The notes: generated by a model from the letters alone, not told the origin. DNA of 7,019 bases from a virus (IMGVR_UViG_2534681998_000017:1-7019); one strand, 5' to 3'; counted from the first letter of the stretch, positions 249 through 6,697 are shown. Numbers and translations are program-made.

Positions 249-3164
249 ATGGCAGTAAAGATTTCAGGTGTACTGAAAGACGGCACAGGAAAACCGGTAG
301 AGAACTGCACCATTCAACTGAAAGCCAGACGTAACAGCGCCACGGTGGTGGTGAACACGGTGGCCTCTGAAAATCCGGATGAAGCCGGTCGTTACAGCAT
401 GGACGTTGAGTACGGTCAGTACAGCGTTATTCTGTTGGTGGAAGGGTTCCCGCCGTCACATGCCGGGACCATCACCGTGTATGAAGATTCTCAACCCGGT
501 ACGCTGAATGATTTTCTTGGTGCCATGACTGAGGATGATGTCCGTCCGGAGGCACTGCGCCGTTTTGAGCTGATGGTGGAAGAGGTGGCGCGTAACGCGT
601 CCGCGGTGGCACAGAACACGGCAGCCGCGAAGAAGTCAGCCAGCGATGCCAGCACATCAGCCCGTGAGGCGGCAACCCATGCGACTGATGCTGCGGACTC
701 AGCACGCGCAGCCAGCACGTCAGCCGGACAGGCCGCGTCGTCGGCTCAGTCAGCGTCTTCCAGCGCAGGAACGGCATCAACAAAGGCTACTGAAGCATCA
801 AAAAGTGCTGCCGCTGCAGAGTCCTCAAAAAGCGCGGCGGCTACCAGTGCCGGTGCGGCGAAAACGTCAGAAACGAATGCGGCAGTGTCACAACAATCAG
901 CCGCCACTTCTGCATCCACCGCGACCACGAAAGCGTCAGAAGCTGCCTCCTCAGCCAGGGATGCGTCGGCTTCAAAAGAGGCGGCAAAATCATCAGAAAC
1001 GAGCGCAGCCTCGAGCGCCAGTAGTGCAGCCTCCTCGGCAACGGCGGCAGGCAATTCCGCGAAGGCGGCCAAAACGTCTGAGACAAACGCTAAGTCCTCT
1101 GAAACGGCAGCAGAACAGAGTGCCTCCGCAGCAGCAGGCTCAAAAACAGCGGCTGCATTATCTGCCAGTGCCGCGTCAACAAGTGCCGGGCAGGCCTCAG
1201 CCAGTGCCACCGCCGCCGGAAAATCGGCAGAAAGTGCCGCATCGTCTGCTTCAACAGCCACAACGAAGGCTGGCGAAGCCACTGAACAGGCCAGCGCAGC
1301 AGCGAGTTCTGCTTCCGCAGCGAAGACATCCGAAACGAACGCGAAAGCGTCGGAAACCAGCGCAGAATCCTCAAAAACGGCTGCCGCATCGTCAGCCAGT
1401 TCGGCGGCGTCATCGGCATCATCTGCGTCTGCTTCAAAAGATGAGGCGACCAGACAAGCGTCAGCAGCGAAGAGCAGCGCCACGACGGCATCCACGAAGG
1501 CGACAGAGGCAGCTGGTAGTGCGACGGCAGCAGCTCAGAGCAAAAGTACGGCGGAATCTGCAGCAACGCGCGCTGAGACAGCGGCAAAACGGGCAGAGGA
1601 TATTGCATCCGCCGTGGCGCTTGAGGATGCGAGCACGACGAAAAAGGGGATAGTACAGCTCAGCAGTGCGACTAACAGCACTTCCGAGTCACTGGCGGCA
1701 ACGCCAAAAGCCGTTAAGGCCGCGTATGAGCTGGCTAACGGGAAATACACCGCACAGGATGCAACGACAGCACAGAAAGGGATAGTTCAGCTTAGCAACG
1801 CGACCAACAGCACATCTGAAATGCTGGCGGCAACGCCAAAGTCGGTAAAGGCAGCCTATGACCTTGCTAACGGGAAATATACTGCTCAGGACGCTACGAC
1901 AGCACAAAAAGGAATTGTCCAGCTCAGTAGTGCAACCAACAGCGCATCTGAAACGCTTGCCGCGACACCGAAAGCAGTGAAAGCAGCTAATGATAATGCG
2001 AATGGTCGGGTACCTTCTGCCCGTAAGGTGAATGGTAAGGCGCTTTCATCGGATATAACACTGACGCCGAAAGATATTGGTACGCTTAACTCAACAACAA
2101 TGTCATTCAGCGGTGGTGCTGGTTGGTTCAAATTAGCAACGGTAACCATGCCACAGGCGAGTTCTGTTGTTTCAATTACGTTGATTGGTGGCGCGGGATT
2201 TAACGTGGGGTCACCTCAACAGGCAGGTATATCTGAACTTGTTTTGCGTGCAGGTAATGGTAATCCGAAGGGGATTACTGGTGCTTTATGGCAGCGCACA
2301 TCGACAGGGTTTACAAATTTTGCCTGGGTCAATACATCTGGTGATACTTACGATATTTACGTTGCAATCGGAAATTATGCGACTGGTGTAAATATTCAAT
2401 GGGATTATACCAGTAATGCCAGCGTGACGATTCATACGTCACCAGCATATTCTGCTAATAAGCCGGAAGGGTTAACGGACGGTACAGTTTATTCACTCTA
2501 TACGCCATCAGAGCAGTTTTATCCGCCTGGCGCACCAATCCCGTGGCCATCAGATACCGTTCCGTCTGGCTATGCCCTGATGCAGGGGCAGACTTTTGAC
2601 AAATCTGCATACCCGAAACTTGCAGCCGCTTATCCGTCAGGCGTGATCCCTGATATGCGTGGCTGGACGATTAAGGGCAAACCTGCCAGTGGTCGGGCCG
2701 TATTGTCTCAGGAACAGGACGGCATTAAATCGCACACCCACAGCGCCAGCGCATCCAGTACGGATTTGGGGACGAAAACCACATCGTCGTTTGATTACGG
2801 CACTAAATCCACGAATAACACCGGGGCGCACACGCACAGTGTGAGCGGTACAGCCGCAAGTGCCGGAAACCATACTCATAGTGTCACAGGCGCATCAGCA
2901 GTCAGCCAGTGGTCACAAAATGGGTCAGTACATAAGGTAGTGTCTGCGGCCAGTGTGAATACAAGTGCTGCAGGAGCGCACACTCATAGTGTCAGCGGCA
3001 CAGCTGCATCTGCAGGTGCTCACGCACATACTGTCGGTATTGGTGCTCATACGCACTCTGTTGCGATTGGCTCACATGGACACACCATCACCGTTAACGC
3101 TGCGGGTAACGCGGAAAACACTGTCAAAAACATCGCATTTAACTACATTGTGAGGCTTGCATAA
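249..3164 (+). CDS. stf: side tail fibre protein, lambda Stf-type (971 aa)
   Basis: Long ORF whose N-terminus [30 protein letters not shown]...[14 protein letters not shown] matches my recollection of lambda Stf. It has an Ala/Ser/Thr-rich shaft, three tandem GIVQLSxATNS repeats, and a C-terminal tip with recurring H-x-H motifs ending ...[25 protein letters not shown] at 249 is preferred over the in-frame GTG at 243 because it reproduces the Stf N-terminus. Stop TAA at 3162-3164. Confidence 0.9.
607..1620 (+). repeat. low-complexity Ala/Ser/Thr-rich repetitive shaft segment inside stf
   Basis: About 340 codons dominated by A/S/T with recurring motifs (AAKTSETNA three times, [24 protein letters not shown]). 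The GCN/TCN/ACN periodicity also creates long spurious ORFs in other frames and on the opposite strand. Confidence 0.7.
1644..2000 (+). repeat. tandem 132-bp (44-codon) phage tail-fibre repeat, about 2.7 copies, inside stf
   Basis: Unit [44 protein letters not shown] begins at 1644, 1776 and 1908 (exactly 132 nt apart). The third copy diverges after ...AVKAA. Copies differ by a few synonymous and conservative changes. Confidence 0.85.
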
Positions 3165-3742
3165 TGGCATTCAGAATGAGTGAACAACCACGGACCATAA
3201 AAATTTATAATCTGCTGACCGGAACTAATGAATTTATTGGTGAAGGTGACGCATATATTCCGCCTCATACAGGTCTGCCAGCAAACAGTACCTATATTGC
3301 ACCGCCAGATATTCCGGCTGGCTTCGTGGCTGTTTTCAACAGTGATGAGTCATCGTGGCATCTCGTTGAAGATCATCGGGGTAAAACGGTTTATGACGTG
3401 GCTTCCGGCGACGCGTTATTTATTTCTGAACTCGGTCCGTTACCGGAAAATGTTACCTGGTTGTCGCCGGATGGAGAGTGTCAGAAGTGGAACGGCACAT
3501 CCTGGGCGAAAGATGCAGAAGCAGAAAAACTGTTTCGGGTACGGGAGGCAGAAGAAACAAAAAACAGCCTGATGCAGGTAGCCAGTGAGCATATTGCGCC
3601 ACTTCAGGATGCCGTAGATTTGGATATTGCGACGGAGGAAGAGGCATCGTTACTGGCTGCATGGAAGACATATCGGGTATTGTTGAATCGTGTTGATACA
3701 ACAGTAGCAGCGGATGTTGAGTGGCCAGTCGCCCCACAATAA
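3164..3742 (+). CDS. tfa: tail fibre assembly protein, lambda Tfa-type (192 aa)
   Basis: [45 protein letters not shown]... matches my recollection of lambda Tfa. Its ATG overlaps the stf stop (TAATG at 3162-3166), the usual stf-tfa coupling. Stop TAA at 3740-3742. Confidence 0.9.
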
Positions 3743-3748
3743 AAAGAA

Positions 3749-5009: not shown

Positions 5010-5015
5010 GACTCC

Positions 5016-6697
5016 TCAATCTTTATCGTAAAAACTGCCACGCCTGGCACGGGCGCGCCGTTCCATTTCTGCCCTGACCATTTCGCCGACCAGTTTCGCC
5101 AGTTCGCGGGGATTCTGCGTAACAACGTTATGCAGATGAACATGAATTTCACCGCCAAATCCGGAGGCAACAGGCTCCCGGTTACGGGAAGTTGCAGGAA
5201 CTGATGCCACTGGCGATCGTATGGCCTCCACCACCGGGCGGGAGCTGGCCGCAACAACAGGGACCAGCGCCGGAGGCAGCGGAGCCGGGACCACGGGTGT
5301 GATATTAATTGCGGGGGCAGGCTTACTGACCTGCGCAATCTTCCGCTCCTGCCACTCCCCACGAACAGCAAGTGCGCGGGGCAGGTTCTTAAAGACAATA
5401 TCGCCGGGGCCAATGCGTTTTTTTGTCTCATCAACCAGCTTACCTGTGTTATCAGCAATTTTGCTGAGTCTGCGTAGCGTGCCGGTATTGCTGTCTGTGA
5501 GAGGTTTGTTGTCTTTGGGTTTATCATCTCCGGTGCCATTGCTATTTCCCGCAGACTTCGGCGGATTGATTTTCGCAATGTCTCCCTGAAACAGAGCAAC
5601 CTTGTCCTGAAGAATGGCCGCACGTTGTGCGTCTTCGATTTTCTTGCGCGCCCTTTCCGCTTCATCCGGAAGCACACCGAGTTTTTCAAGTATCCACGCC
5701 AGCGTATCCAGCAACATTTTTGCAGGCGTCAGAACAAGCTGTAACGCACCACCAAGAACGTTACCGAATACCTCGCCAGCACTGGTACATTTATCCAGCG
5801 TTTCCTTGCTGGACTCCATCGGTGACAGCAGCGATTTAAACCAGTTAAACACCTGGCTGAACCGCTTCCGATTACGTCAAAAACAGGGCCAAACCGTTCA
5901 AAGGTGTCGCGCAACGGGGTCAGCCTTTCCATAATCCCGCTGAACACCCCGGCAAAGAAAGCCCTGATAGGATCCCAGTATTTCCAGATAAGAACGGCAG
6001 CTCCGGCAAGCGCAGCCACGATAAGACCAACCGGACTGAACAACGCCCCAATAACGCCTCCCAGTAAAGAAACGGAACCCGTCACCATTCCCCATAGCGC
6101 AGGTAACACCCTGACGACATTCATTGACCGGGTAAGAATGTCAAAACCAAGACGCAGGGTGGCCAGCTTCCCGTAAAGCACCCCAATAACCAGCGACAAC
6201 GAGCCAATCGTTGCAGTCATTGCCAGCAACGCACCGCCTGCTATCAGTAGCTGGCGCGTCAGTACCGGATGGGCCTGCGCCAGCGAGGTGATTTTTTCAA
6301 GCACCCGCGTGAGCCACTGCGTGACAGAACGCAGCGGACCGTCAACCAGATCACTGATGCGAATACGAAGACCTTCCCATGCGCTGTCGAGATTTTTCAG
6401 GTCCCCATCAAGATTATCAGCCATTACTTTTGCGACGCGATCGGCCTCTCCCCTTGCCCCCTGCAATTCTCTGGTCAGTTTTTGCAGCTCTCCTGAACCA
6501 GCCGCCGCAACAAGCGTCTGCAAACCAACGAACGCCTCTTCTCCGGCGATGTCCTTGAAGAAGGAGACCTGGTCCACCTGTCCGTATTTTTGTGTCGCCT
6601 TATAGAGATCAAGCAGCACATCCTCCATCGGGCGCATTTTGCCTCTGGCGTCAGCAACTGACACCCCCAGCTCTTTCAGTGCATCAGCCGCAGCTTT
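5016..6697 (-). pseudogene. phage tail tape-measure protein gene, P2 gpT-like, frameshifted and 5'-truncated
   Basis: Two overlapping minus-strand ORFs in different frames (5729-6718 and 5016-5852) together read as one tape-measure protein. The upstream part has the ...[31 protein letters not shown]... core and a hydrophobic Gly/Ala-rich helical segment; the downstream part has VFNWFKSLLSPMESSKETLDK..., a Pro-rich stretch and a charged C-terminus. The frame change is confined to 5853-5876. The 5' end is missing: at about 6698 the sequence becomes IS-derived. Confidence 0.75.

Follow-up and report, generated by a model that had tools for sequence, protein, structure and literature searches.

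The DNA considered here (hereafter "the window") is a viral sequence of 7,019 base pairs (bp; IMGVR_UViG_2534681998_000017:1-7019) in which tail fibre genes of a lambdoid prophage face tail genes of a P2-like prophage, with an acetyltransferase gene between them. A search for exact protein matches to a small open reading frame (ORF) near the right-hand end led to a single record, AMTN01000077.1, which has the same gene layout; the window is the entire 7,019-bp contig of that name, from the draft Escherichia coli assembly GCA_000304835.2. Judged by sequence comparison, the window is made up of three known, annotated elements: the lom-stf-tfa end of the lambdoid prophage Sp10, a tfa'-acetyltransferase-U-T segment of the P2-like prophage Sp13, and a piece of the insertion sequence (IS) IS629/IS1203. 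The prophage alleles are of the O157:H7 type. The parts are already known as prophage elements of O157:H7, and as such the finding is an ordinary one. The lambdoid and P2-like parts meet inside the tfa gene, at a seam that most likely arose during genome assembly.

Three genes lie on the plus strand. At the left end of the contig is a 3' fragment of lom (1-181) from the Sp10-type lambdoid prophage; lom encodes an Ail/Lom outer-membrane protein (PF06316), and tblastn with Sp10 Lom recovers the fragment as three frame-shifted pieces. It is followed by stf (249-3164), the Sp10 allele of a side tail fibre gene encoding 971 amino acids, with matches to the Pfam families phage_tail_N (PF08400, 3e-72), Phage_fiber_2, and Collar. 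The third gene is tfa (3164-3742), which encodes a tail fibre assembly protein of 192 amino acids (Caudo_TAP, PF02413, 6e-40). Mismatch maps against both parents indicate that tfa is chimeric, with the 5' part from the Sp10 allele and the 3' part from the Sp13 allele. Lom, an Stf with a prophage tail fibre N-terminal domain, and a Caudo_TAP protein, all encoded on one strand, together constitute a lambdoid side-tail-fibre module.

Beyond tfa, the ORF list and the Pfam matches place the acetyltransferase, gpU, and tape measure genes on the minus strand, as the first-pass annotation had described. A hairpin with a 13-bp stem and A/T runs on both sides (3749-3778), detected by a terminator scan and visible in the sequence, is common to the convergent tfa and acetyltransferase genes and is likely a bidirectional terminator. 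The acetyltransferase gene (3786-4358, with the longest ORF extending to 4391) encodes a predicted hexapeptide (left-handed beta-helix) O-acetyltransferase of 190 amino acids, based on phrog_2154, NCBIfam, and PDB matches, and is identical to the Sakai locus ECs_2638. The gpU tail protein gene (4515-5009; Phage_P2_GpU, PF06995, 1.5e-38) is that of Sp13 (Sakai ECs_2639). It lies directly downstream of, and on the same strand as, the tape measure gene T (5016-6708; PhageMin_Tail, PF10145), the arrangement that defines a P2-like (Peduoviridae) tail module. Only the C-terminal part of T is present, as ORFs in different frames (5016-5852 and 5729-6718), and it is cut off at 6708. The contig ends with an internal fragment of IS629/IS1203 on the plus strand (6699-7019) that begins roughly 230 bp into the element and is 100% identical to the IS1203 of strain PV15-279 and 97.5% identical to a Sakai IS629 copy. 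Both contig ends are located inside multi-copy repeats, lom and IS629.

The lambda-to-P2 seam inside tfa

Each prophage segment of the window can be assigned to its parent base by base. Positions 179-3435 have 0 mismatches to the Sp10-type lambdoid prophage of O157:H7 strain FORC_044, with dense differences from 3436 onward. Positions 3351-5859 have 0 mismatches to the P2-like Sp13-type prophage of O157:H7 strain PV15-279, to which there are 7 differences inside 3164-3350. Bases specific to Sp10 end at 3350, and those specific to Sp13 begin at 3436. The crossover interval is the 85 bp between these positions (3351-3435), across which the tfa alleles of Sp10 and Sp13 do not differ; this is the longest identical run between the two alleles, which are 93% identical overall. 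It is also the only lambda-to-P2 seam in the window. To the right of the seam, positions 3436-6690 are matched over their full length in Sakai Sp13, in EDL933, and in about 40 other listed O157:H7 genomes, three of which are exact and the remainder of which have one mismatch, as judged by bit score.

Comparison with the two parents in their usual setting shows what the window shares with each of them. Sakai Sp13 (CP-933T of EDL933), a defective P2-like prophage, has the order IS629, tfa', ECs_2638 (acetyltransferase), ECs_2639 (gpU), and ECs_2640 (T pseudogene), and the window has the same order from tfa' to T; positions 3209-6708 align to Sakai Sp13 without gaps and with 6 mismatches. Unlike the window, however, the tfa remnant of Sakai Sp13 begins at window position 3209 beside IS629, with no lom-stf upstream, since IS629 has replaced the 5' end of tfa along with the genes for head, baseplate, and H. 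In addition, T runs on into E, FII, and FI in Sakai Sp13, whereas in the window it halts at 6708 against the internal IS629 fragment. Sp10 shares the order lom, stf, tfa with the window and then continues into Mn-catalase genes; from 3436, the window carries the Sp13 allele instead of the 3' end of Sp10 tfa and the catalase genes. Thus, the suggestion in the first-pass annotation that sequences of two phages are combined here was sound, with a lambdoid and a P2-like prophage as the sources; its further reading of the locus as an eroded remnant, with heavy deletion and a moron (an added cargo gene) at the seam, did not hold up, as described in the next section.

The junction is absent from closed genomes. 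None of the 5,426 complete E. coli genomes covers 80% or more of the window, and no complete genome matches positions 3200-3560 at 99% identity or more. Typical O157 genomes hold only the two parental copies of this region, and a third tfa copy that might bridge the two alleles was rejected as a source of the seam on this basis. The exact chimeric Tfa protein is encoded on 140 contigs of up to 65 kb in length. For the parental Tfa proteins, the numbers are 705, 981, and at least 1,000 contigs, the longest of which is about 5.6 Mb. Nine draft contigs and one IMG/VR contig (L007) share the arrangement lom-stf-tfa::acetyltransferase-U-T, usually starting at lom or at the stf N-terminus and ending at IS30. 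A 105-nt pattern across the crossover matched 46 loci in IMG/VR, 45 of which are ordinary lambdoid tfa alleles that share the stretch, leaving L007 as the only full chimera; among GTDB species representatives, the single match (ECDA1023) is an unrelated, 92%-identical lambdoid tfa. A possible second chimeric join, suggested by differences from other chimeric contigs at 300-389, was also rejected, as that stf allele is present in the Sp10 of closed O157 genomes.

How did the seam arise? By inference from closed genomes, contig counts, and topology, it is most likely an assembly chimera. In such a scenario, the assembler would have joined Sp10 to Sp13 through a collapsed or mis-threaded tfa repeat, somewhere within the 85-bp identical stretch. 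The alternative is that the seam is a genuine product of RecA-type exchange between the tfa genes of Sp10 and Sp13 in some O157:H7 strains, either through an excised circle of Sp10 that integrated into Sp13 or through inversion in strains with the two prophages oppositely oriented. We consider this unlikely. Nonetheless, there are several observations that favor it and count against an assembly artifact. First, modern short-read assemblers, with reads of 150-250 bp, should normally thread an 85-bp repeat. Second, the same structure recurs in many recent, independent draft assemblies at NCBI, as well as in the IMG/VR contig. Third, the crossover falls in the longest identical run of the two genes, and a contig with the reciprocal junction exists (L144). 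Fourth, Sp10 and Sp13 are inverted relative to each other in the closed genome of CDC#03-98, and a viable inversion could yield the junction. Fifth, both prophages excise and circularise in Sakai (PMC2669165), so real recombination is physically possible. The frequency data also have limits as evidence for an artifact: the parental contig counts reach at least 1,000, such that the share of the chimera among drafts cannot be derived from them, and a count of zero among the about 270 closed genomes with this type of Sp13 is not decisive alone.

The evidence against genuine exchange is of four kinds. First, the junction occurs in 0/5426 closed genomes and on no contig longer than 65 kb. Second, the two products are unbalanced. 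The reciprocal product, in which IS629-tfa' runs into the 3' end of Sp10 tfa and the catalase genes, is found on 3 contigs of at most 4.7 kb, as compared to 140 contigs for the chimera, while equal numbers (1:1) would be expected from circle integration or inversion. Third, the topology is unfavorable. Nearly every closed O157 genome checked has Sp10 and Sp13 as direct repeats separated by 0.85-1.0 Mb; with Sp10 upstream and Sp13 downstream, the observed join would be a deletion product from which ~0.9 Mb of chromosome had been lost. By reference to the map of E. coli K-12, the segment lost would run between min and uvrC and include essential genes such as pheST and thrS. Fourth, the distribution of crossovers is not that expected of recombination. 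At least four haplotype backgrounds carry the chimera, and one of them has a PV15-279-type T that lacks the frameshift described below. Chimeric Tfa proteins that switch at other points are confined to contigs no longer than 15 kb: 3219-3292 (3 contigs), 3294-3343 (7 contigs), 3440-3462 (21 contigs), and 3551-3612 (1 contig). With 21 contigs in an interval of 23 bp and only 1 in an interval of 62 bp, the crossover spectrum does not scale with identity length as RecA-dependent exchange would. Hence, none of the features expected of a genuine hybrid prophage, namely a junction in a closed genome, a balanced reciprocal product, and a viable topology, was found. A reading in which the join is real, as a recurrent Sp10-Sp13 exchange through tfa by way of excised circles or strains with an inverted segment, and has been systematically missed in closed genomes, is correspondingly doubtful.

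What are the implications of an assembly chimera at this position? Tail fibre and tfa genes are common to lambdoid, P2-like, and P1-like phages at 90%-100% identity. Shared tfa sequences at this level of identity mean that draft assemblies of poly-lysogens, such as O157:H7 strains, can splice unrelated prophages and so mimic hybrid phages. The main value of this case is therefore as a caution on draft contigs.

Gene order beside gpU

In P2 itself, U is followed by D, as the first-pass annotation stated, and the late region reads I-H-G, fun(Z) on the opposite strand, and FI-FII-E-E'-T-U-D-ogr. The window has in common with P2 the G/Tfa, T, and U families and a non-essential cargo gene on the minus strand directly downstream of G. 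However, the Sp13/P88/Gemsvirus lineage differs from P2 in three ways: the block from FI to U is inverted; the cargo lies between G and U rather than between G and FI; and D follows FI, whereas in P2 it follows U. The cargo gene itself also differs, being a hexapeptide acetyltransferase in the window and Fun(Z) in P2. Complete examples of the inverted arrangement are the P2-like prophage of E. coli A1, phage 500465-2 (Gemsvirus), and the prophage of O157:H7 strain PV15-279, all of which read I-H-G on the plus strand, cargo, U-T-E'-E-FII-FI on the minus strand, and D on the plus strand, then ogr. FI-FII-E-E'-T-U is thus inverted as a unit in the Sp13 (CP-933T)/P88-like/Gemsvirus branch, and in its native position U is separated from the facing tfa by a cargo slot. 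Of this arrangement, the window includes the part U-cargo-tfa; FI and D fall outside the contig.

The spacing and content of the region beside gpU fit this native architecture. The gap between gpU and the acetyltransferase is 123 bp (4392-4514), as had been noted, if it is counted between the gpU stop and the longest acetyltransferase ORF, and 156 bp when the start annotated in RefSeq is used. Full-length relatives share the exact spacing of tfa, 43 bp, acetyltransferase, 156 bp, and U. Eighty IMG/VR loci have a gpU at least 99% identical to that of the window, and some of these are full-length contigs of 35-44 kb. Wherever relatives of the probe genes turned up in these loci, the order is U, a convergent cargo, then tfa and P2-type H and I, and D was detected downstream of U in 0/80. 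The order tfa/acetyltransferase/U/T is found in 495 of the 5,426 complete E. coli genomes. The prophages with this convergent arrangement carry P2-type H and not an stf N-terminus of lambda type. The order of P2 sensu stricto, with D coming directly after U on one strand, is found neither in the window nor in its relatives.

These data bear on the proposal, made in the first-pass annotation, that the gene expected after gpU is missing and that the locus is what erosion has left of two phages, or of a single hybrid, with D and other tail genes deleted beside gpU and the acetyltransferase inserted at the deletion seam. There are points in keeping with such erosion: Sp13 is heavily deleted in Sakai-type strains, T is a frameshifted pseudogene, and the acetyltransferase cassette is AT-rich. 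Nevertheless, we regard it as very improbable. With the block from FI to U inverted, the native position of U is facing tfa and that of D is after FI, so nothing has been deleted beside U; D never adjoins U in this lineage. No remnant of gpD, sheath, gpI, invertase, or macro-domain genes was detected by tblastn in the window or its two spacers. Homology to relatives that lack the acetyltransferase (P88 and 500465-2) ends at 4509, 6 bp beyond the U stop codon, which marks a clean cargo-slot boundary and not a deletion scar. The deletions that Sp13 does carry are located elsewhere, with IS629 to the left of tfa' and IS30 in D. The first-pass annotation had itself named intact phages with the convergent arrangement as evidence that would count against it, and full-length P2-like prophages, together with the complete genomes counted above, essentially provide this. 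More generally, an expectation of gene order taken from a type phage, in this case U followed by D in P2, fails for whole family branches that have an inverted tail block.

The acetyltransferase and its cargo slot

The acetyltransferase cassette is AT-rich, as first described, with a GC content of 33%-38% over about 3750-4500, as compared to 50%-60% in the flanking sequence. Its description as a moron at the seam between two phages has to be revised, since the seam is inside tfa, and the acetyltransferase, which is linked to the tfa side, belongs to the P2-like prophage as its native cargo.

The enzyme belongs to a broad class, and a specific name is difficult to justify. Profile scores are far under the NCBIfam cut-offs for EpsC (76 versus 150 bits), CysE (TIGR01172; 62 versus 211), WcaB (56 versus 196), and NF008349 (37 versus 397). 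Serine acetyltransferases in the PDB match at 1e-12 but align over the beta-helix only (residues 54-180). In our reading of the PDB alignment, the His of the CysE "DH" stretch is aligned in the window protein; the N-terminal serine acetyltransferase (SAT) domain is absent, and the protein has 190 amino acids as compared to about 273 for CysE. Thus, the protein has neither a score above the curated CysE cut-off nor the N-terminal helical SAT domain, and the RefSeq name "serine O-acetyltransferase" is probably over-specific. The best label, on sequence similarity, would be a CysE/WcaB/EpsC-like hexapeptide acetyltransferase. The protein matches phrog_2154 at 2.9e-87, a family without an assigned function.

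The position of the gene is that of a known cargo site. As at P2 moron position 2, the gene lies after G in the opposite orientation, has a deviant GC content and promoter-like and terminator-like sites, and is replaced in relatives; this slot has been described as a position for morons in P2 (PMC3573123). The promoter-like site, TTGAAT-17-TATAAT (4410-4438, minus strand), is a consensus match only, at 10/12 positions, identified in a promoter scan that found four sites versus 3.2 expected by chance. With such a site, an ORF, and the terminator-like hairpin, the acetyltransferase gene is a self-contained moron that moves with the fibre-tip/tfa module. Occupants of the slot vary among the 80 IMG/VR loci: 31 have this acetyltransferase, about 37 have a DNA invertase with an invertible fibre segment, about 8 have an insert of ~1.1 kb with weak similarity to a heptosyltransferase (glycosyltransferase family 9, GT9), and a few have nothing recognisable. 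A precedent is phi-b0847, a P2-like prophage of strain CFT073, in which neaT, an AT-rich, single-gene, oppositely oriented cargo, encodes an acyltransferase after G (Wiles et al. 2013, PMC3573123). The two cases are alike in having an AT-rich, opposite-strand acyl- or acetyltransferase gene in the same slot after the tail fibre gene G. However, the proteins are not homologous: NeaT is a membrane protein (Acyl_transf_3, PF01757), whereas the window enzyme is a soluble left-handed beta-helix protein of the CysE/WcaB/EpsC type.

The acetyltransferase gene travels with fibre genes beyond P2-like phages. Positions 3027-4357 of the window, comprising the fibre tip, tfa, the 43-bp spacer, and the acetyltransferase gene to its start codon, have 91% DNA identity to the P1-like phage vB_EcoM-Ro157c2YLVW (Punavirus). 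The same convergent tfa-43 bp-acetyltransferase arrangement is found there, but embedded in a P1-type fibre region rather than beside gpU. That module is located at 4276-9044 of locus L146, presumably where a P1 layout would put the invertible fibre segment. Its 91% identity indicates that the module has been exchanged between P1-like and P2-like phages. Citrobacter phage phiNP has a 44% acetyltransferase homologue that is also convergent to tfa. Together, the Punavirus module and the phiNP homologue indicate that the acetyltransferase belongs to the tail fibre module and not to the U side.

What does the enzyme do? By prediction, it most likely O-acetylates a sugar or a surface-polysaccharide precursor in the lysogen, which may be the receptor that the linked fibre recognises. 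An anti-phage defence or counter-defence role, rather than surface modification, is an unlikely alternative, although it has some attraction. Many occupants of P2 hotspots are defence genes. The acetyltransferase fills the P2 cargo slot after G (PMC3573123), and the same slot holds diverse alternatives. Moreover, the phrog_2154 family is widespread, and homologues occur in P1-like, P2-like, and Citrobacter phages. On the other hand, no PADLOC defence model matched the acetyltransferase, with no family at E ≤0.01, and the gene is tightly linked to the tail fibre/tfa module in three unrelated phage types. Linkage to the fibre and tfa, together with a slot occupant that resembles a lipopolysaccharide (LPS) heptosyltransferase, suggests receptor or surface chemistry. 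A more specific proposal, that the fibre tip, tfa, and acetyltransferase module common to P1-like and P2-like phages is an undescribed receptor-modifying lysogenic-conversion unit, which travels with the fibre that recognises the receptor in question, is doubtful. The part of the locus that is of remaining biological note, albeit of modest interest, is the substrate of a widespread, uncharacterised phrog_2154 enzyme that rides with tail fibre modules.

Other cargo was seen in and near the slot. In locus L090, the alternative cargo (6592-7676) consists of two adjacent minus-strand ORFs of 183 and 139 amino acids, the second of which has a weak match to glycosyltransferase family 9 (LPS heptosyltransferase; 25.8 bits versus a cut-off of 22). 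Inserts of this type are also found in L078, L082, L096, L100, L106, and L139, and by sequence the insert looks like a split LPS-core glycosyltransferase. A gene for a macro-domain protein of 300 amino acids lies between H and tfa in locus L003 (21488-22390) and in 12/80 of the IMG/VR loci (e.g., L069 and L070). Its carriers include some Sp13-like prophages of atypical O157:H7 and of O55:H7.

The tape measure gene and the contig ends

The tape measure gene has a frameshift at 5860, a 1-bp deletion, that is common to the Sakai pseudogene ECs_2640 and typical O157:H7 and absent from strains of the PV15-279 type and from contig L055. Because its distribution follows lineage, this deletion is a real lineage marker and not a sequencing error. 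At the right-hand end of the window, T meets the interior of IS629/IS1203 at a 10-bp overlap (6699-6708; GGCGGTGATG), one read-length from the contig end. This junction is found in no complete E. coli genome and in no other chimeric draft contig; the junction pattern had no matches in IMG/VR, and the 329-amino-acid T ORF that spans the junction has no exact record. Strain 2012C-4227 was considered as a genome that might share the junction, and was rejected since its IS3 element is located elsewhere in T. Either a chimeric read or a genuine deletion by microhomology may account for the join.

A different join is seen in contig L055, where (7053-7989) a T remnant runs straight into a 36-bp spacer and then a YecA-like gene. 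The closed PV15-279 genome has IS1203 and remnants of IS30 and D at this place, all of which are skipped in L055. Either the assembler joined across repeats here, or an IS excision or a deletion took place.

At the left-hand end, lom contains two 1-bp deletions in short homopolymer runs (at ~64 and ~152-154) that break the frame relative to every Sp10 copy compared. Differences from the FORC_044 Sp10 in this region are confined to 64, 154, 172, and 178, and the 1-bp deletions are likely sequencing errors at a low-coverage contig end. Lastly, three ORFs (646-1653 on the plus strand; 746-1495 and 1090-1608 on the minus strand) overlap the Ala/Ser-rich repeats of stf and are apparent by-products of biased composition; the draft annotation calls one such stf-overlapping ORF as a gene (746-1483).

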